A DNA stretch of 64,000 nt from Chamaesiphon sp. (GTDB lineage: Bacteria > Cyanobacteriota > Cyanobacteriia > Cyanobacteriales > Chamaesiphonaceae): NCBI GenBank assembly GCA_965246715.1, contig CBDFFH010000009.1, positions 32,001 through 96,000 on the forward strand, written 5' to 3'. Positions 8,301 through 19,509 of the stretch are shown here, in pieces. Positions within the stretch are counted from its first letter, which is position 1. Each line of letters opens with the position of its first letter. The notes beneath the pieces were generated by a model. It was given only the letters and a program-made list of their open reading frames with translations, searched no databases and had not been told where the DNA came from. The translations under genes were made by a program, and so were the position numbers.

Positions 8301-8615
8301 TTACGATCGAGCGGTAGTTGGCAAACTGATACGATCTATATTGTTGTGAAACTTCCACTTATTTGCCTTTTCCCAAGCTTCCTCAAACTCGTGGCGGTCG
8401 ATCTTATGCTCCTCTTTTATTTTGAGCCGAGACAGAGACTGATCGCACATCCGCAACTTGTCTTTCATGCTACTTTCGGCTCCACAAGAAAACCATTCTT
8501 GCTTATCTGGGTATTGTTCGACCTGTCGATTAGCCCAGTCATCAATGAACTCAATATACTGAACGATCCTTTTCCCTGGTTGCTCTACCGTGAATTTATA
8601 ATACTGAGTAGTCAT
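8301..8615 (-). CDS. small hypothetical protein, putative immunity/antitoxin of the upstream ART
   Basis: 104 aa, 33 bp downstream of the ART gene; C-terminal IDRHEFEEAW. Confidence 0.55.
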   Translation of the reverse strand: MTTQYYKFTVEQPGKRIVQYIEFIDDWANRQVEQYPDKQEWFSCGAESSMKDKLRMCDQSLSRLKIKEEHKIDRHEFEEAWEKANKWKFHNNIDRISLPTTARS

Positions 8616-8648: not shown

Positions 8649-9056
8649 TCACAAAAGTGTATCTTCAGTTTTTCCATGTATTGAATCTCCAATTTTCAGA
8701 CCTACATTAGTCTTGAAAAGACTAATTCTCCTAATGTCTTCTGGATCTGGATCTTCTCCTATTATTTCTAAATATAGCTGTCTAAAATCGGAAACTTCAT
8801 TTTCTGGTAAAATCAACTGAAAATAATAATCGAGCGTATCTATGTCTACGGCTGTCCCAAACAATTCAATTGGGACATCCATGTTGCCTACTTGAATTGC
8901 TCTAGCAACTTCTATTGGTTCAATCGTTGTTAAGTAGACACCATCACCAAAGGTTGCATCCTTCCTTCCGCTGCTTTTGAGTGATGGCTTAATGATACCC
9001 GTTTCGAGAATACCTTCATATCCCTCTTTAGAGGTATAGTGACGATAGGAGCGCAA
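8649..9056 (-). CDS. HYD1-signature ADP-ribosyltransferase (Tox-ART-HYD1-like)
   Basis: YRHYTSKEGYEGILETGIIKPS....DATFGDGVYLT; TTG start. Confidence 0.75.
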   Translation of the reverse strand: MRSYRHYTSKEGYEGILETGIIKPSLKSSGRKDATFGDGVYLTTIEPIEVARAIQVGNMDVPIELFGTAVDIDTLDYYFQLILPENEVSDFRQLYLEIIGEDPDPEDIRRISLFKTNVGLKIGDSIHGKTEDTLL

Positions 9057-9969: not shown

Positions 9970-11073
9970 ATGAATGAGCCAAAAAAGCGGGGACGACCGC
10001 GAAAGGATGGTGAATCAGAACAGCCGGAATTGGCAATTTCAAACGGTTATCCAGATTTCCTTGACGTTATCGAGAAGTATCTGGCTGAAGCCAAGTGGAC
10101 TAAACGAGAGTTGATGACAGCGATCGGTTTTGGCGAGACACAACTATATCGTTGGAGTCGTGGCGAGAGCGTCCCACGCAAAGCAACGGTTAATCGAATC
10201 GCCATTCAACTGGCAAATAGGCTAGATGCGATTTATGGCAATCGTCTGAACGATCCCTCTCCAGCAACAGATGCGATCGATAGCTTGCTCAACGAGTTAC
10301 TGGGAGCCGCCGGATTTGCTGCTTCGGTTAGAGGTATCACTGGTGATGATTGCTGGAACAAAATCGCTCAGAATCAATGCTGGACACTGGGCTATACAAT
10401 GGTTTCAGAGTTGGCTATCCCACCAGAACGACGTGGTGGTAAGCCCACAGGAAAAGCTATAGAGTACGCCGAAACGATCGGACGATTACTAGGAATAGAA
10501 ACTCTCTGGGAATATCTTGACTTCAACGTCATGCCAGGTGCGATCAGGCAAAGACAAGTCGATGGCATTGCTCCAATTATGTTGGTGCTGCCAGGAAGAT
10601 TATTCGACTACAGTTTTTCAAATCGATGTAGTGAGACACCCTTCACTTTGACAGCGATCTCCGATCGTCAGCTTATTGATGGTGCCGATTGTTTGGAAGC
10701 CCTGCCAGCAAATAAAGTCGAGCTACTTTTTGTAAAGGGTGAGTTGGGTGATTGGGGTGCAAGTGTCTTATCTAACAAGTATCTTCTCAGACAGAGTTTT
10801 GCTAATGCTGACGAGGCGATTAGTTATATGCAGGGGTTAATCGAGCGGCAGGAGTTAGACAAAATACCCGTATTACTCATTGACAATAGCACTGGCGGAT
10901 ATCTAGTCGATCGAGAAAATGATAGAGGTCAACCTAAGCTATTGCAGATTGAAATCAAAAGCGTCAACCTAACAACGTTTAATTCTTTTGCATTTCATCC
11001 AGATGAGAAAATGCTGGTTAATGCAGTCAACCAGTCCATTCCACTTACTCCATATATTCAAATCAAAAACTAG
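9970..11073 (+). CDS. XRE-type HTH regulator fused to a family-3 substrate-binding domain
   Basis: KKRGRPRK AT-hook-like; WTKRELMTAIGFGETQLYRWSRGESVP HTH; PTGKAIEYAETIGRLLG...AIRQRQVDGI..YSFS SBP-like; no signal peptide. Confidence 0.75.
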   Translation: MNEPKKRGRPRKDGESEQPELAISNGYPDFLDVIEKYLAEAKWTKRELMTAIGFGETQLYRWSRGESVPRKATVNRIAIQLANRLDAIYGNRLNDPSPATDAIDSLLNELLGAAGFAASVRGITGDDCWNKIAQNQCWTLGYTMVSELAIPPERRGGKPTGKAIEYAETIGRLLGIETLWEYLDFNVMPGAIRQRQVDGIAPIMLVLPGRLFDYSFSNRCSETPFTLTAISDRQLIDGADCLEALPANKVELLFVKGELGDWGASVLSNKYLLRQSFANADEAISYMQGLIERQELDKIPVLLIDNSTGGYLVDRENDRGQPKLLQIEIKSVNLTTFNSFAFHPDEKMLVNAVNQSIPLTPYIQIKN

Positions 11074-11084
11074 AGGGTAACAAA

Positions 11085-11777
11085 ATGAGCCAGCAGATCG
11101 ACATTCAAGAGCTAATTTCACTGATCCTAAATTCCGAGAAGCTATTTATAAACACCAAGATTCGTGAAGAATTGATTGCATGTATCTTGAATTCAAGTAA
11201 ATTGGTTGAATTTGGTGAAGGCTTTTACTTCATTAGACATGATTTTTGCAAGCTAAATTTCATAGTTGGTGCAAGATGTTCTAATGATGAAATGCTCTGG
11301 TCTGGCTTGGCTAAGAATTTAGTGGAAGAGCTAGGCGGCAAGAGCGGTATCAGTCACAACAAACTCTATTGTGACTTTCTAAAGTCTATTGGAGCCAAAA
11401 CGGAAAATGAATTAGACTGCCCTACCTTCGCTCAAGAATTTAATGATCGCTGGGAAGAATTTGCTAGAACCGCCCCTCTAATGGAGGCTTTATCGGCAAT
11501 AGCTATCTACGAAATTTTTGACGTTCCAGATTACCAGATGTTTTTAGAAATACTAGAACGAGCGAAAGTACCAAAAGAAGGACTAATATTCTTCAGGGTT
11601 CATGCAAATGCTCACCACTTTGAAATGTTTGAAGATACGGTAGCTTGGATACTCACTCAAGAAAGTGGTCAAGAAGCATTCGATCGAGCCAAAGATTTTG
11701 TATTTGATACTCAAAGAAAAATGTGGATTGGCCTAACAGAATTCCTCCAGTCAAAACAATTAGTAGCCGCAAATTAA
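11085..11777 (+). CDS. heme-oxygenase-like diiron redox enzyme (TenA/PqqC/CADD/BesC superfamily)
   Basis: NLVEELGG..SHNKLYCDFL...AIYEIFD...FFRVHANAHH: E/H/E/H/H ligand pattern. Confidence 0.75.
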   Translation: MSQQIDIQELISLILNSEKLFINTKIREELIACILNSSKLVEFGEGFYFIRHDFCKLNFIVGARCSNDEMLWSGLAKNLVEELGGKSGISHNKLYCDFLKSIGAKTENELDCPTFAQEFNDRWEEFARTAPLMEALSAIAIYEIFDVPDYQMFLEILERAKVPKEGLIFFRVHANAHHFEMFEDTVAWILTQESGQEAFDRAKDFVFDTQRKMWIGLTEFLQSKQLVAAN

Positions 11778-11799
11778 AATCTAAAACGGGAGAGATAGA

Positions 11800-12672
11800 A
11801 TGTTAAAAAAATCACTGCTCAGGTATGTATTGCTAGGGTTGTCCCTATTTAGCGTACTCATCTTTAATTTAGCTGGATGCACCAATAGTAATGTGGCACC
11901 TCCCACAGCTACTGCTAGTGCCTCCGTCATGGATCGGGTAGCAACCGATAGCAAAGTCAAAATCGGCTACTTAGTCTTCCCGCCAGCGATTACCAAAAAT
12001 CAAACTAGTGGCGAAATTGGCGGACATCTAATCGATACCATCAAAGAGATTGCCCGACTCAGTAAATGGACACCTGAGTTTGTCGAAACAGATTGGGCGG
12101 GATTTACAACGGGATTAGATTCTGGTCGGTTTGATATTTCCGTCGTGCCAACCTTTGTGACAGTCCCTAGAGCATTATCCATCTACTTTACCAAACCACT
12201 ATTCTTCGCTGGTAACAGTGCGATCGTCCGTGCTGGTGAAACTAAAATTACCACCCTTGCCAGCATCGACAAACCCGAAATTAGAGTCGCCGTCACCCAA
12301 GGTGAAGCGGGGGATGAATACGCTAAGGCAAACTTTAAAAAAGCGAAGATTACCAGCTTTCCAGGTAGCGATCAATCCGCCGCATTCCAAGCTGTAGTCG
12401 CTGGACGCGCCGATATTGCCTTGGGGGATGCTTATGCTACCGCTCAGTTCGCCAAAGCCAATGCAGCCAAGGTCAAAGACCTATTTGCCGCTAATCCCTA
12501 TAACCTCACCCCCGTATCCTGGGCAGTGAGAAAGGGCGACGACAAATTACTCAACTTCCTCAATAGCAGCATTGAAGCCCTCGATTATCAGGGACGCTTA
12601 CGCGAGTTCGAGCAAAAAGCAGGTGCTAACTGGTTGCACCCTAAAAAAGTCTTGGAATTCACTAAAGGCTAA
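11800..12672 (+). CDS. polar amino-acid ABC transporter substrate-binding lipoprotein
   Basis: Lipobox LAGC; GLDSGRFDI, FTKP, AVVAGRADIAL, AVRKGD. Confidence 0.9.
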   Translation: MLKKSLLRYVLLGLSLFSVLIFNLAGCTNSNVAPPTATASASVMDRVATDSKVKIGYLVFPPAITKNQTSGEIGGHLIDTIKEIARLSKWTPEFVETDWAGFTTGLDSGRFDISVVPTFVTVPRALSIYFTKPLFFAGNSAIVRAGETKITTLASIDKPEIRVAVTQGEAGDEYAKANFKKAKITSFPGSDQSAAFQAVVAGRADIALGDAYATAQFAKANAAKVKDLFAANPYNLTPVSWAVRKGDDKLLNFLNSSIEALDYQGRLREFEQKAGANWLHPKKVLEFTKG

Positions 12673-12678
12673 AACCTC

Positions 12679-13353
12679 ATGGGCTGGAACTTTGCGGTCA
12701 TGTGGAATAGTTTTCTACCCCTGTGCCTTGCCATGCTCACCACCATTTGGATTAGCATTGGCACGATTGCCATCGGCACGACTTTAGGGGTGCTGCTGGG
12801 GATTCTATCCCTCACCTCAAATCAATTTGCCTCCAGACTCGCACAGGCATTTATCGAACTATTCCTCGCCCTCCCAGCCCTAGTGATTCTCGTCTGGCTC
12901 TACTATAGTTTGCCGCTGATTTTCCCTGGCTTCATCTTGAGTGGCGATGCCTGTGCTGTGCTGGGGTTAGGATTGAGTTTATCCGCCTTCGTTGCCGACA
13001 TTATCCGAGGTGGCATCAACGCCATCCCCCCAGGGGAACTGGAAGTTGCCTACTGTACGGGAATGACTCGGCTCCAAGCAATTCGCTACATCCTCATCCC
13101 CCAAGTCCTCCAGCGATCTTGGCTGCCGCTGATGGGGCAATATATCACCACCTACAAATTTTCGACCCTAGCATCAGTCATCGCCGTTCCCGAAATCCTG
13201 CATACAGCTAATGCAATCATCGCTCAAACCTATCGCCCATTAGAGATTTACTCGATCGTCGCCTTCATGTTCGTCATCACAATTATGCCGCTCAACCTGC
13301 TCCTCCGCAGACTTCAGCGAGTGAGCAACCTTGGTGGCATGGAGAAAATATAG
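12679..13353 (+). CDS. polar amino-acid ABC permease (HisM/GlnP-like)
   Basis: ADIIRGGINAIPPGELEVAYCTGMT..IRYILIPQ EAA-like loop. Confidence 0.9.
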   Translation: MGWNFAVMWNSFLPLCLAMLTTIWISIGTIAIGTTLGVLLGILSLTSNQFASRLAQAFIELFLALPALVILVWLYYSLPLIFPGFILSGDACAVLGLGLSLSAFVADIIRGGINAIPPGELEVAYCTGMTRLQAIRYILIPQVLQRSWLPLMGQYITTYKFSTLASVIAVPEILHTANAIIAQTYRPLEIYSIVAFMFVITIMPLNLLLRRLQRVSNLGGMEKI

Positions 13354-13358
13354 TCCCT

Positions 13359-14039
13359 ATGGCAGAAGTACTCCTCCGACTCGAAAACATCCAAAAAAAA
13401 ATCGCTGGCAATACGATCCTCGATAACGTTAGCTTGACACTCGATCGCGGTGAAAGTCTGCTAATTCGCGGTAAGAGCGGCTGCGGCAAAACCACACTGC
13501 TCAGATGTATCGCCCTGCTAGAACAGATCGATCGAGGACAAATCCTGTTCGATGGCAAGGTAGTATCTGAGAAGGGTGTACTCGATCGCACCAAGTACAA
13601 GCCCGAAATCGGGATGGTATTCCAGCAACTCTACCTCTGGCCGCATCTAACCGTCTTAGATAATGTCTCCCTCCCCCTCCATTTGCGCCAAGGCGGACAC
13701 AAAAAACTAGCTGACGGGCTGGCGATCGAAAAACTATTCCAACTCGGCGTAATCGGCAAAGAAACCGCCTATCCCCATCAACTCTCCGGCGGACAAAGAC
13801 AACGAGTTGCCCTCGCCAGAGCCTTAGTCCATTCCCCCAGCCTCCTCCTCCTCGATGAAATCACCGCCAACCTCGATCCCGAAACCGCCAGCGTCGTCCT
13901 CGAACTCGTCGAAAAAATTATCCTCTCCGGTACCACCGTCATCATGATTTCCCACCTACCCGTCACCTCTTCCGTCTGGATGTACGAACTAAACGCCAGC
14001 AACTGGGAGTTGGAAAAAAGACAACAGCGCAATAGCTGA
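13359..14039 (+). CDS. polar amino-acid ABC ATPase (GlnQ-like)
   Basis: GKSGCGKTT, LSGGQRQR, LLLDEIT. Confidence 0.92.
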   Translation: MAEVLLRLENIQKKIAGNTILDNVSLTLDRGESLLIRGKSGCGKTTLLRCIALLEQIDRGQILFDGKVVSEKGVLDRTKYKPEIGMVFQQLYLWPHLTVLDNVSLPLHLRQGGHKKLADGLAIEKLFQLGVIGKETAYPHQLSGGQRQRVALARALVHSPSLLLLDEITANLDPETASVVLELVEKIILSGTTVIMISHLPVTSSVWMYELNASNWELEKRQQRNS

Positions 14040-14476
14040 AATTAATGAGTCCGCGCAATACTAATTTACAAAGGTATTTAACGGCGATCTTCCTGTTATT
14101 CCAAGATATATTCGACTGCTATTGGGCGGTTGAGGTAGTAATTTACCGATATCTCAGCTTCGTAACATGATACTTCTAGAAGCTAGAATGGGTATACTTG
14201 CTAGAGGAACCGCTTAAATTGCTTAGTTAAGTACACATTACTTCTCAATTCCCCAGGCTATGTGTAAAATTGAGGTAAGTTAATAATCTGTCAAAAAATA
14301 TATTTCATAAATATACATAAAAGATATACATTCTCAGTGACACATCCAAAACCTTGTGTACCTTTCGGGCAGAAGTTTTTAGTCATTGTATATATCTAAG
14401 CCACAGACCTAGTTATTATTTAATTAGTAAACATGTTCTTACATATTAAGCTTGAACGGTTTCCCATAGATGAACA

Positions 14477-15238
14477 ATGACATTCTCTAATCCACCGATT
14501 GTTGAAGCCATATTCCATGTAGTAGTAGAGCGTGACAGTGAATTTAATAATGAAACATTAAATGATTATGCTAAGTACATCACAGAAAAATTTCCTGCTT
14601 TCGATCGACAAGAACAAAGATTTCTAAAAAATGACATATCATTTCATTCTGACAATCCACACAACATAACTTCTTCTATTAGCAATATTTTACAAGGATA
14701 TCTTTTAGCATCCAATGATAACCCCAGAGTTATTCAAGCTAATATAGACAACTTCTCCTTTAGTAAATTGCCTCCTTATGGAACATGGGAATCATTCTAC
14801 AAAGAAGCAAATGAATTCTGGGAGAAATACGCTGAGATAACTTCAGTCGATCGAGTCAAACGCCTTGGATTACGCTATCTAAATCGGATTGAAATTCCTT
14901 TTGATAATAGATCTTTTAAGTTACGAGAATACATCAAGATATTCCCTGAAGTCACTGATGATTTATCAGTAACAATTTCTGGACACTTTATGCAAATGTC
15001 TCTTGACTCTGAGCTTTATAAACCGTCCAGAGCAATTGTAAATCAAGCAGTTGGCAATGTAGGCGATATGAAGTCCACTCCTTTAATATTTGATGTTGAA
15101 GTTTTTCAAGATGTAGACCTTACGCATCAAAACAATTCCAAAGAAATAGAATCAATTTTTATTAATAACTTACGAATATTCAAGAATAGTATATTCTTGA
15201 ATAGTATCACTGAAAAATCACAGGAGCTTTTCAAATGA
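14477..15238 (+). CDS. TIGR04255-family protein
   Basis: FSNPPIVEAIF..., PYGTWESF, VKRLGLRYLNRI, LIFDVEV, FLNSITE. Confidence 0.85.
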   Translation: MTFSNPPIVEAIFHVVVERDSEFNNETLNDYAKYITEKFPAFDRQEQRFLKNDISFHSDNPHNITSSISNILQGYLLASNDNPRVIQANIDNFSFSKLPPYGTWESFYKEANEFWEKYAEITSVDRVKRLGLRYLNRIEIPFDNRSFKLREYIKIFPEVTDDLSVTISGHFMQMSLDSELYKPSRAIVNQAVGNVGDMKSTPLIFDVEVFQDVDLTHQNNSKEIESIFINNLRIFKNSIFLNSITEKSQELFK

Positions 15239-15810
15239 TAGTTTCAGAACGTCAAACCATCGCAAAAAGTCCTATTCAAACAGTAACAAAATCAGGTAGT
15301 TACAATGTTATTGCAAGCTCTAGCAAAGGTGAAAGCTGCGAATACAAGCGAGTTGAAGCACAGATAAAGTGTCAAGATCGTACTGAGGTTGCTCACGTAC
15401 TTGAAAGTCCTGATGTTGCTGAATTAGAAAAAAGAGCAGAGGATTTAAGAGACTTATTACTTGAAAATCGTACTGCTTTGTCAGAGCAGGAAATGCGTCT
15501 ACTCAAAGGACTTTTTAATAGTAACAAGCAACTCATTGCTCTGAACAAAAAAACATCTCCATTAATTTTAGTAGCATTAGCAAGTCTTTTAGAGCCACTA
15601 ATTGAAAATCCTGCCTATGCTCAAGACATAGAGTCTATCGTCAAGAGCTTACTAAAATCACCATCAACAAGTTTAAGATATGCTGCTCTAGACATTATCA
15701 CTGCTGGATTAGGAATAGTTCCTGTTGCAGATTCATTACTAAAAGAAGCGAAAATATTGCTAAAAAATGAAGAGCCTGGGTATGTTCTCGAATACTTGGA
15801 GTCTCTTTAA
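15235..15810 (+). CDS. hypothetical protein, coupled to TIGR04255 (ATGA overlap); helical/HEAT-like C-terminus; candidate antitoxin
   Basis: ORF 191 aa, 4-nt overlap. Confidence 0.7.
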   Translation: MIVSERQTIAKSPIQTVTKSGSYNVIASSSKGESCEYKRVEAQIKCQDRTEVAHVLESPDVAELEKRAEDLRDLLLENRTALSEQEMRLLKGLFNSNKQLIALNKKTSPLILVALASLLEPLIENPAYAQDIESIVKSLLKSPSTSLRYAALDIITAGLGIVPVADSLLKEAKILLKNEEPGYVLEYLESL

Positions 15811-15813
15811 TTT

Positions 15814-17788
15814 GTGGAGCAATTTCTTTATTATCGAAGTTTGAGTAAAAGTGCAGATATCTGGAGAAAGGGGAAAAAAATCAGGTTCTACCGAACTTAC
15901 TATGCTAAATCAAGGATTGAAATGCCATGCTAGCAAACTTCTGATCTGAAAATTCTCAAAATTTCTAAACCCATATCCCATTCTTTTTATTAGCTTGAGT
16001 TTATTGTTAATTCCTTCGACGACTCCTTGAGTTGTTCTATTATCAAAATAGGCAATTATTTCACCAATCCATCTTTTAATAGTTCCACAACTCTTGGGGA
16101 ATTTCCCACAAGCATTCTTGAGCCAGTCACACAAGCTTATTAGCCCATTTCCCCAATCTGTTTTTGATTCAAATATATCTCTAAATAACTCTTTTGTTTT
16201 GTGCATTGCTGCTAATTCTGGAAAAACGTCTCCAATCTCTTTCAACTTCTCTTTTTGCAATTCATTCAAATCCGCTTCGTTTTTGAGTATTGCATATTTA
16301 CTGTGAGTTAATGCTGCTAATTTCTTGTTCTTTTCATCTTTGTTCTTCACCCTCTCAGCCTCTCTTTTGATTTTAATTCTCTCTCGATCTAACTCTTCAT
16401 TTATCTGTTTCATTACATGAAATCTGTCTCCAACCACTTCAGCATTTGGTATCAATTCATTTACCAGACTTTTGTATGATGAAAATAGATCGATACTTAC
16501 TTCTGTAATTTGGTTCAAAACCTCCGAACCCCAAGACTTCAAGCACTCACCAATACATTCTTGAGTCCTTTTTGGTAAGATGGCTATTAACTCTCTTTTT
16601 TCTAGATCTACTAACACCGCACAATAGTTTTTTTGCCCTTTAACAAAGGCAATTTCATCAATTCCTAGTCTGGTTAAATTCTCTGGCTTTTTTTGCACTA
16701 GATTTACCCCAGCTTTTTTGATTATTGTCTCCACTTCTTGCTCACTTAATCCATTTCTTTTGGCAACACTTTTAATATCACTAGCTAGACTCTCTTCGAC
16801 AATCTTCTGCTTCATTCGCTCGGTGAAATGACTTCTCTTTTTGATGAAATTTAATTCCTCACTGAATTTTCGACCACAACTCATACACTTGAATTGACGA
16901 CGATTAATTTTAAGGTAAACATCATGTTCACCGAATGGTAGATCTCTCACTGTTAATTGGTGATTCTCATGAAGTTTATTACTTTCAGTTCCACAATGAG
17001 GACACACTGCTTTTAATTGCTGATTTTCTAGATAAATAAAATAACCGATTTCATCTAAGATCTTATAAGCAGTGACGGTCATTCCGTCGATATTAAGAAT
17101 TTCATTAATGGTTTTTAGTTGCGATTTGGATGACATAATGCAATTCAAGCTTATTTGTTGCCAGAAATCAAGATCTTACTATTCTATAATAAAATCTGTC
17201 ATTTATGCTGCACCAAGCTTCCATAACTCAAAATTATCAATTTTGTCAATTAAACTTGATTCTTATCCACTACTTAGCATAGCAAGTTCGGTAGAGCCAA
17301 AAATCAAAGCTTTTCCCCCTGATGTTGAAAAAGAGACATACTTGAGCCACATGACAATGGGAAAAGGATTTCCTTCGATATGGATGTCATCAAACAATGA
17401 AGATCTAGAAAGAATTGCTCTTGGGCTTATGCTATGCAAAGGAAGTCTTGACAGGATAGAATTTGTCGGATTAAATCTATGCTGTTTTGAAAAAACACAA
17501 GTCAAAATTATCCAATCTTCTAATCCTCAATTTCCATTACCTTCGGTTGGCAATCTTCATCATGAATTACACAGCTATAATGACGACAATATTACCGAAT
17601 CAATTGAAATATTCCTATATTGCAATGGAAAGATCGAGAAATTTCCAAAAGTCTCGAATTCAGACACAGAGACAAGTATGCTAAACATAGCAAAGAAGTA
17701 TATCGATGAAATAAGTGGTGAAGTTTATATAAAGAAAGCTAGGGACTGGATTGAAAAATACGGAAAATCTCAAGTAACTGGGAATTAA
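15814..17788 (+). pseudogene. 183-aa putative ART/RES-fold toxin interrupted by ISL3
   Basis: Removing 15884-17306 rejoins MEQFLYYRSLSK...KKI/KAFPPD...PSIW..LERIALGL..LDRIEFV..NLHHEL in frame. Confidence 0.7.
15884..17298 (-). mobile_element. ISL3-family IS; transposase 15910-17148
   Basis: IRs ggttctaccgaacttactatgctaa / ggctctaccgaacttgctatgctaa; 8-bp TSD aaaaatca; GIDEIAF, DRFHV, EGINNKLKLIKR. Confidence 0.95.
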
Positions 17789-17847
17789 AAAAGACAGTTG
17801 AATTAAATGGAGTTATTTCTCGATCTACTATAGACGTTAGTAGATCT

Positions 17848-18364
17848 AGGACAAATCCTCTTCGATGGCAAAGTAGTATCAGAAAAAGGTGGACTCGATC
17901 GCGCCAAGCACAAACCAGAAATTGGCATGGTATTCCAGCAACTCTATCTATGGCCGCATCTAACCGTCTTAGATAATGTCTCCCTCCCCCTCCATCTACG
18001 CCAAGGCGGACACAAAAAAATAGCTGATGGACTCGCGATCGAAAAACTATCCCAACTCGGCGTAATCGGCAAAGAAACCGCCTATCTCCATCAACTCTCA
18101 TGCGGACAAAGACAGCGAGTCGCCCTAGCCAGAGCCTTAGTCCATTCCCCAAGTCTTCTCCTCCTCGATGAAATCACCGCCAACCTAGATCCCGAAACCA
18201 CCAGCGTCGTCCTCGAACTCGTCGAGAAAATTATCCTTTCCGGTACCACTTTCATCATGATTTCCCACCTGCCCGTCACATCTCCAGTCTGGATGTACGA
18301 ACTAAACGCCACCAACTGGACATTGGAAACAAGGCAACAGCATCAAGAATTTGAGAATCGATGA
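17848..18364 (+). pseudogene. diverged duplicate of the 3' two-thirds of the ABC ATPase gene (13535-14028)
   Basis: Near-identical protein without Walker A; signature changed to LSCGQ. Confidence 0.9.
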
Positions 18365-18697: not shown

Positions 18698-19231
18698 TCA
18701 ACCCATCATCAATCTGATATCTTTGAGCAACTTATACATAGTCAGTGGCGATGCTGGAAATGGCTCGAACCCAAAATGACCATAAAACTTGCCCGCACTC
18801 TCATCTTTAGCATGAACGAGAATCGCCCTAATTCCAGCAATGTCAGCGGCATTTACGGTTCGACGCAAAGCGTCCAACAATAAACCTTGTCCGAGCTTTT
18901 GCCCTTGAAAACGATTATCTACAGCCAACCGCGCCAAAACCATCACGGGGATCGGGTAACGTGCCAACCCTTTACTCAACCCTTCAGGTGACTCAGAATG
19001 CGTGACTTCTCCCACCGTGAGGGTGTAATAACCAACCACCCGTTCGCCAATTAACGCCAGCCAAGTTTGGGCACTGTCTTTCTTCTGATTTTGGGATGCG
19101 TATCGGTGTAAAAACTGATTTAGTGCCTCTACCCCACAATCGAATTCGGCGATCGGTTGCCCAGATGTAAGTTTTTCGATCCGTGGCTGAGAATCGTCTG
19201 TGGCTATGGACATCGTTCGCGTAGCGTTCAC
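18698..19231 (-). CDS. GNAT acetyltransferase toxin (AtaT/TacT type)
   Basis: FDCGVEALNQFL, LARLAVD..FQGQKLG, FYGHFGF. Confidence 0.9.
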   Translation of the reverse strand: MNATRTMSIATDDSQPRIEKLTSGQPIAEFDCGVEALNQFLHRYASQNQKKDSAQTWLALIGERVVGYYTLTVGEVTHSESPEGLSKGLARYPIPVMVLARLAVDNRFQGQKLGQGLLLDALRRTVNAADIAGIRAILVHAKDESAGKFYGHFGFEPFPASPLTMYKLLKDIRLMMG

Positions 19232-19509
19232 TTTGTGAAATCGAACACACTGGGTGTATTTAGCAGTTGTTGCAGACGGGGATGAGTGCGAGGCGGAGCA
19301 TCAAGAGCTGCCTGGAAAGCATCCCATTGTTCATCGTTGAGACTAAATTGCCGCCGTTCGGCTAGGGTACTTTCTGCTTCTGTCAGAGCGGTATCCAGTA
19401 CGAATTCACTGAGGGTTTTATGACGAGATTGTGCCGCAGCCTGCAACAACCTCTTCGCAGTTGGGGAAAGGCGAATATCTAGCCTTTCTGCCCGTAAATT
19501 AGAAGACAT
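19228..19509 (-). CDS. DUF1778 RHH antitoxin
   Basis: ERLDIRLS..K.LLQAAA....TLSEFVL..; overlaps the toxin start. Confidence 0.9.
   Translation of the reverse strand: MSSNLRAERLDIRLSPTAKRLLQAAAQSRHKTLSEFVLDTALTEAESTLAERRQFSLNDEQWDAFQAALDAPPRTHPRLQQLLNTPSVFDFTK

Follow-up and report, generated by a model that had tools for sequence, protein, structure and literature searches.

Introduction

Toxin-antitoxin-chaperone (TAC) systems such as CmdTAC provide the nearest described parallel to a three-gene cassette, headed by a gene of the TIGR04255 family, that lies within a 64,000-nucleotide stretch of a Chamaesiphon sp. genome (assembly GCA_965246715.1, contig CBDFFH010000009.1, positions 32,001 to 96,000; this whole stretch is hereafter the window). 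In TAC systems a chaperone holds the disordered tail of the antitoxin and gives it up when a phage protein competes for binding (PMC11618068; 10.1101/2024.02.24.581848). Tse2 of Pseudomonas aeruginosa is an NAD-dependent toxin resembling ADP-ribosyltransferases (ARTs) (PMC6099711), and DS-42 (PRO1) is a replicated anti-phage trio encoding proteins of 238 aa and 190 aa and a metallo-beta-lactamase (MBL) hydrolase, with about 1.1 log of protection in one row of the screen (PMC13092281). The DefensePredictor supplement to the same study tables eight TIGR04255 proteins as predicted novel defence genes (PMC13092281).

None of the full texts searched contains the string 'TIGR04255', and in the same literature we found no report of a fixed TIGR04255 place at the head of trios with variable toxin-like third genes. 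Titles and the starts of abstracts contain no description of the cassette, although it may already have been described under a different name. The supplements of PMC13586616 and PMC13069673 gave no matches, PMC9846239 offered nothing relevant, and 10.64898/2026.10.19.760177 treats a different ternary theme.

TIGR04255 genes head trios whose third gene is exchanged, and the cassette described here, a conserved and mobile member of this group, has the following features (window coordinates):

14040–14476, plus strand: AT-rich upstream region (GC 0.34), with a promoter likely inside
14477–15238, plus strand: gene A, TIGR04255 protein of 253 aa, proposed helper or sensor
15235–15810, plus strand: gene B, middle protein of 191 aa, proposed antitoxin
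15814–15883, plus strand: 5' piece of gene C, with a GTG start at 15814, holding conserved R8 and W17
15884–17298, minus strand: ISL3-family insertion sequence (IS) of 1415 bp, splitting gene C
17299–17788, plus strand: 3' piece of gene C, holding S47, W49, P100, H108 and E110; ART-like fold predicted

TIGR04255 trios and their third genes

Gene A matches the TIGR04255 model at positions 2–252 of 252 (E 6e-33; score 114.7 bits, cut-off 30), in agreement with the first-pass annotation of the window, a reading of the sequence that had recognised the family. TIGR04255 is present in 36 of 301 cyanobacterial genomes with a patchy distribution, and 30 of the 45 matches came with loci, including a second locus in this genome. 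Two coupled genes follow the TIGR04255 gene at all 30 loci, compared with 46 of 849 (5%) same-sized control open reading frames (ORFs) judged by the same rule. A neighbourhood survey, as the first-pass annotation had suggested, returned a coupled trio at each of these cyanobacterial loci, with a variable third gene. In our own grouping the third genes comprise a family with a TQxCD motif (17 loci), the gene C family (5), a short family with an R..N-x-x-H pattern (5), HEPN domain proteins (2; E 5e-8 and 0.006) and a PIN domain protein (1; E 7e-11). An annotated zeta toxin ends a TIGR04255 trio on a Vibrio plasmid, and a TIGR04255 copy on a Thermus plasmid lies between a VapC pair and cas6. In a tree of 33 A proteins, from which near-duplicates were left out, the third-gene label changes nine times against a minimum of five; one well-supported clade mixes the TQxCD and short families, another mixes HEPN and PIN, and several branches are long.

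The TQxCD family (L024:2516-3040, L032:2661-3272, L001:2848-3702 and 14 more) has invariant Q-G and Q-x-C-D motifs and matches phrog_4575 (E 3e-6), and searches that included a TQxCD profile gave no Pfam, NCBIfam or PDB match; it is a candidate new toxin family. A resemblance to PemK/MazF found no support in profile searches. Members of the short family (L037:2702-3109, L038:2870-3328, L042:2735-3172, L019 and L043) have an early Arg and a late N-x-x-H and did not align to the gene C family, and are possibly another ART-like clade.

The other TIGR04255 trio in this genome is intact and lies on contig C3 (L001, 21041-24775), adjoining a tyrosine integrase. Its first gene is about 20% identical to gene A, its middle gene has a weak helix-turn-helix (HTH) match, and its third gene belongs to the TQxCD family.

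Architecture of the cassette and the interruption of gene C

Genes A and B overlap by four bases and three bases separate B from C; the GC content of the three genes is 0.33–0.37, whereas the window as a whole has 0.435 and the upstream gene 0.52. The AT-rich operon with −4 and +3 junctions is as first annotated. Promoter consensus sites in the upstream region number three, compared with 2.1 ± 1.1 in shuffled sequence, and are not above chance.

The insertion has the transposase (15910-17148, minus strand; NF033550, E 8e-99), the terminal inverted repeats (34 nt, 82% complementary) and the 8-bp target duplication of the ISL3 family. The duplication is an exact copy of AAAAATCA, with its left copy (15876-15883) ending the 5' piece of gene C and its right copy (17299-17306) opening the 3' piece, and other lengths from 4 to 13 do not fit. 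With the element removed, gene C is an open frame of 183 codons that contains the motifs quoted in the first-pass annotation, with the insertion sitting after codon 23. Because a natural uninterrupted relative in the protein database (P0001) is also 183 aa long, with 99% identity over the 3' piece, and because contigs from three of four sequencing runs (X2, X4 and X5) carry the empty site and skip exactly 1423 bases, this frame is not an artefact of the excision. RNA runs with small shares yielded short contigs of low depth that cover portions of A, B and C, two of them spanning the B–C junction; as DNA carry-over could account for these contigs, they are not taken as evidence of expression.

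The insertion is recent. The genome contains 21 full-length copies of this element with 99.9–100% identity, 19 of which have an 8-bp duplication, and their targets are mostly AT-rich. It had been proposed that the insertion in the third gene reflects selection against a toxin, and this argument is not sustained: gene C makes up 29% of the coding length of the cassette, and since the element has undergone a burst and the gene is AT-rich, no selection is needed to account for one recent hit. The insertion is uninformative about the toxicity of gene C, although loss of the toxin gene would be the viable route to losing such a module.

Conservation and genomic context of the trio

One genome per species was scanned with an alignment of gene C, which yielded 16 cyanobacterial loci. 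In all 16 genes A and B lie directly upstream of C in the same order, with gene B conserved in each; the first-pass annotation had made conservation of the trio a test of its proposal. The nearest named relatives are in Chamaesiphon and other cyanobacteria. Naturally intact trios occur, for example, in Chlorogloeopsis fritschii PCC 6912 (L009). The trio is also present on the Crinalium plasmid pCRI9333.03 (L048) and at two further metagenome loci, in one of which C is cut short (a third metagenome match is a repeat of L012). Ratios of dN/dS are 0.12–0.34 in 20 of 24 comparisons, and the cassette is under purifying selection. Close relatives of gene C are present in five of 401 cyanobacterial genomes including this one, by a search that missed the distant member L045.

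Among the flanking ORFs of the 16 loci, 39 of 60 were scanned. Type I restriction genes, C-5 methylases or an HsdR-N protein adjoin seven of the loci, two of which also adjoin TniB/TniQ genes, and DUF499 adjoins one more; elsewhere the neighbours are mutL, ATP synthase or cytochrome oxidase genes. The restriction-modification (RM) type neighbours are suggestive of a defence context. At L003 a 628-aa ORF (L003:7599-9485) lies beside a MerR-HsdR_N gene and has no Pfam match at 1e-8; its start recalls Cas12k of CRISPR-associated transposons. This ORF, together with TniB/TniQ at L013 and L014, is a hint that transposons may carry the trio. In most of the Nostocales loci (L011–L016) the gap between B and C is approximately 135–160 bases rather than three, perhaps reflecting a repeat or an internal promoter.

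More distant relatives of gene C are present in nine plasmid-collection records and five phage records; distant members match phrog_10743, a family of unknown function. Four of these records were opened, and three of them show a coupled trio of hypothetical genes (about 230, 200 and 180 aa) with the relative in last place, whereas the remaining record starts mid-locus. The C genes of the opened records score 46–58 bits with the C profile. In the temperate Acinetobacter phage Ab105-1phi the distant trio follows the lysis gene, and on plasmids of 4–7 kb it makes up most of the cargo.

Predicted structure and conserved residues of gene C

A database search with the 3' piece of gene C returned 21 homologues, and a model built on P0001 with 30 sequences has a pLDDT of 91.5 and a pTM of 0.88. 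Its best solved match among 48,161 chains is Tse2 (Z 6.9, root-mean-square deviation (rmsd) 3.0 over 102 aligned residues, model residues 3-131), followed at lower scores by other ART structures: AvrPphF ORF2 (Z 4.6), CC0527 (4.1), DarT (3.7) and an Xre-RES toxin (3.6). The top Foldseek rows, all weak, are pertussis S1, cholera A1 and DarT, and Atlas rows include DUF952, DarT and NarE with TM scores of 0.41–0.46. In the model R8 is placed on strand 1, S47 on strand 2 and H108-x-E110 on strand 5, in keeping with the strand order of the ART core (10.1101/2020.07.21.169896). Residues W17, S47, W49 and H108 are invariant in 20 C sequences with identities as low as 14%, R8 is present in 18 of the 20, and position 110 is D or E in 16. 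Tse2 has the catalytic triad R-S-H. The structural scores are weak one by one, but they agree with one another and with the strand positions of R8, S47 and H108-x-E110, and an ART-like fold is therefore likely for gene C.

Two narrower assignments were tried and rejected. Gene C is not of the CmdT type, as its residues are R8, S47 and H108 and not H-Y-E, and A, B and 30 members of the C family have no PADLOC match; nor is it a RES protein, as none of 20 members has a RES Pfam match. The first-pass annotation had described an ART/RES-like third gene, of which the ART part is supported by the predicted fold and the RES part is not. Two C profiles compared with the sequences of solved structures gave nothing significant. 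The gene C protein is likely to be toxic.

Gene A, gene B and the N-terminal tail

Gene A is modelled (pLDDT 88, pTM 0.84) as a strand-helix-strands-helix unit that occurs twice, a predicted two-fold beta-saddle resembling the TATA-binding protein (TBP), with no sequence repeat between its two halves. The best structural matches are to RepDE (Z 7.5, rmsd 5.8), McsB (7.2), taurocyamine kinase (7.2), AdoMetDC (6.6) and TBP (6.3-6.5), none of them decisive, and a BFVD search gave one unnamed match (TM 0.45). Neither the gene A sequence nor an A profile has a significant match among the sequences of solved structures. Across 27 diverse TIGR04255 members F232 is the sole invariant residue, with variation at the charged positions.

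Gene B has no match above noise in the family profile libraries, PADLOC included. The conserved C-terminal part looks helical and HEAT-like from its sequence, and its N-terminus is rich in Ser and Thr (0.24 of the first 45 aa compared with 0.12 of the rest). The middle proteins of different third-gene groups are unrelated to each other, yet this Ser/Thr-rich start is common to them: in 33 middle proteins the fraction is 0.234 in the first 45 residues against 0.130 in the remainder, and is higher at the start in 31 of the 33, figures in which kin are not independent and the start was chosen by hand for seven proteins. For 2755 small ORFs of this genome the values are 0.134 and 0.125, and no random set of 33 reached the mean of the middle proteins in 10,000 draws. 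The C proteins have a smaller bias of the same kind (0.13–0.15 against 0.10–0.11).

We moderately favour a role for gene B as the antitoxin, and gene A might bind the tail of B as a helper or sensor, a conjecture by analogy with TAC systems to which we give somewhat less than even weight. The prediction of an A+B+C complex scored 0.79 with B as the partner, 0.65 with A replaced and 0.00 with B replaced; it gave no verdict and is used neither for nor against binding.

Proposed mechanism and alternatives

We propose that the cassette may be a modular toxin-antitoxin-helper system of abortive defence with a non-SecB helper, a reading by analogy that we regard as evenly balanced; a role in defence, taken by itself, is probable. 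TAC-like logic suggests itself because a constant first gene, a middle gene with a tail and an exchangeable, toxin-like last gene occur together. Gene C would be an NAD-using toxin with an ART fold that gene B holds inactive, and the TIGR04255 protein would bind the low-complexity N-terminal tail of B and act as the trigger. A protein of an invading phage or plasmid would then displace or destabilise B, and the freed C would deplete NAD or ADP-ribosylate a cellular target. As TIGR04255 heads trios in which the third gene is exchanged, the same helper could serve many toxins.

A number of observations weigh against this reading. The addiction tails of known TAC antitoxins are C-terminal (10.1101/2024.02.24.581848), and the tail in the cassette is N-terminal. 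The first-pass annotation had raised a SecB-like first gene, which the searches did not support: SecB is absent among the matches listed for gene A in two structure searches (Foldseek and VIA), neither gene A nor the 27 diverse TIGR04255 members have a SecB Pfam match, the 27 have no TY-chaperone match, and no resemblance to a known chaperone appears among the matches listed for gene A, so that its helper role is argued from just gene order and the tail. For gene C, a Z score of 6.9 is within the common range of the tool and unrelated helical proteins are interspersed at Z 4-6, no Foldseek row reaches E 0.001, the Atlas TM scores are below 0.5, and no Pfam, NCBIfam or PADLOC model names it. 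The third genes of 22 of the 30 TIGR04255 loci (17 TQxCD and 5 short) have no Pfam or NCBIfam name, as judged from scanned representatives. Approximately half of the 16 loci are beside housekeeping genes, and four of the seven RM-flanked loci are from related Nostocales in a count made without a background control. Scans of viral contigs with gene A and with the C alignment returned no relative, and in the distant trios the first genes have a profile-profile probability of only 0.2% with A (4–15 bits with the A-family HMM) and the middle genes 2% with B. The exceptions to low dN/dS are one close pair at 0.63–0.79, at very low dS, and one gene B pair at 0.45.

The first alternative retains the toxin-antitoxin core and has the TIGR04255 saddle sense or bind nucleic acid, either foreign DNA or the promoter of the cassette. 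The best rows for gene A include DNA-binding saddles (RepDE and TBP), the conserved R129 and R133 are on a central strand, and most middle proteins have no obvious DNA-binding domain. At an rmsd of 4–6 Å and a TM score of about 0.3, however, these matches reflect a shared arrangement only, a weak HTH is present in the B gene of one subgroup, and a Ser/Thr-rich tail on otherwise unrelated middle proteins fits a peptide-binding partner more easily; we consider nucleic acid binding fairly unlikely. A second alternative, that the trio serves mobile DNA as an addiction or stress module without defending against phage, draws on its presence on plasmids, beside integrase and transposon genes and as phage cargo, as well as on the housekeeping neighbours at half of the loci. 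Three-part modules with exchanged toxins fit the modular pattern of the anti-phage TAC systems, and the RM neighbours and DefensePredictor scores also speak for defence, which leaves the addiction module decidedly unlikely. The kinase-type matches of gene A, to McsB and taurocyamine kinase and at lower scores to glutamate-cysteine ligase (5.3) and PafA (4.8), raise a third alternative, in which it would be an enzyme of the glutamine-synthetase or guanido-kinase type that covalently modifies the tail of B or the toxin and so acts as a switch for toxin activity, in either direction. Strands of gene A do carry conserved polar residues (E10, R133 and D206) and the Ser/Thr-rich tails could serve as acceptor sites, but the variation of charged positions around a single invariant F232 is unlike a catalytic site and gene A has no profile or sequence match to such enzymes, so that this is improbable. 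That gene C is no toxin at all, with a non-catalytic or detoxifying ART-like fold in a benign accessory trio, would suit its weak structural scores and lack of a named family, but is highly improbable given the invariant polar residues at the ART active-site strands and the PIN, HEPN and zeta domains that fill the same slot elsewhere.

The toxin-antitoxin-helper reading can be extended, more tentatively and with some doubt on our part, to TIGR04255 as a whole. In this form the family, as a single-chain two-fold TBP-like saddle, would be the constant sensor-chaperone of a large undescribed three-part immune class, parallel to the SecB TAC systems and independent of them. It would grip the N-terminal Ser/Thr-rich tails of unrelated antitoxins and, in cyanobacteria, on plasmids and in temperate phages, would serve at least six exchangeable toxin families: Tse2-like R-S-H ART, HEPN, PIN, zeta, the TQxCD and short families and, probably, the MBL nuclease of DS-42. 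If this were true, a widespread family of unknown function would acquire one, and the TAC logic of phage sensing would have arisen a second time, on a fold other than that of SecB. As a marker of a toxin-collecting slot, the fixed first gene can guide the search for new toxin families, two of the commonest here being unnamed, and with gene C the Tse2-type ART fold, which is poorly understood, would gain a cytoplasmic relative. Intact natural copies in cultured cyanobacteria make each of these steps directly testable.

Neighbouring genes in the window

On each side of the cassette lies a copy of the 3' portion of a gene for an ABC-transporter ATPase (13530-14028 and 17843-18341); the copies are 90.6% identical over 499 bases, and the start is missing from the second. 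The relative L003 has the upstream ATPase copy and the trio without the second copy, and contigs from other runs have both. The duplication resembles the scar of an older recombination or insertion. Upstream is an operon (9970-14039, plus strand) encoding an HTH plus solute-binding regulator, a heme-oxygenase-like (BesC/CADD-like) oxidase and an amino-acid ABC transporter, and it adjoins the trio in L003 too. A separate gene of the Tox-ART-HYD1 family (8649-9056, minus strand, 135 aa, E 2e-9) has downstream of it a small ORF (8301-8615) that is a candidate immunity or antitoxin partner. A TacA/GNAT toxin-antitoxin pair (18698-19509, minus strand) is located about 1 kb downstream of the cassette.

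Comparison with known systems

Compared by description only, DS-42 shares gene order and size class with the cassette, but its third gene is an MBL hydrolase, whereas gene C is 183 aa with no MBL match, and its first gene is annotated as hypothetical. The first gene of the cassette is a full member of the NCBIfam family TIGR04255, which is sporadically distributed and has no assigned function. The RES-Xre (MbcT) systems likewise place a divergent ART fold in a toxin-antitoxin setting (PMC6436930, PMC9503650), RES structures match gene C at Z 3.6-3.7 and NAD destruction is a plausible activity; in RES proteins Y and N replace the S and E of the R-S-E clade (PMC9503650), whereas gene C keeps the S, and gene B has no match to the Xre HTH. 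Tse2 (PDB 5ako) is the best structural match of gene C, but the two are only 11% identical and gene C has no Tse2 Pfam match. Tse2 is also secreted, as a type VI effector, and has a small protein for immunity, whereas gene C resides in a three-gene cassette and has an extra helical C-terminus.

With CmdTAC (PD-T4-9) the cassette shares three coupled genes, a candidate ART-fold toxin and a middle protein with a low-complexity tail, and with TAC systems more generally one component that is common to different toxins. CmdC, a homologue of SecB, assembles into tetramers, whereas gene A is a predicted TBP-like saddle with no SecB among its listed matches, and CmdT belongs to the H-Y-[E/D/Q] clade (PMC11618068), whereas gene C has R..S..H-x-D/E. 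Gene B has its conserved part at the C-terminus and its low-complexity tail at the N-terminus, which is not the TAC tail arrangement. The first-pass annotation had drawn a parallel to TAC systems with CmdTAC as its example; the parallel holds in that recognised toxin domains occupy the third slot of other trios and RM or mobile neighbours are frequent, but identity with CmdT does not, as the motif differs. The best reading is that the cassette works like a TAC system, yet is not a member of CmdTAC by the criteria compared.

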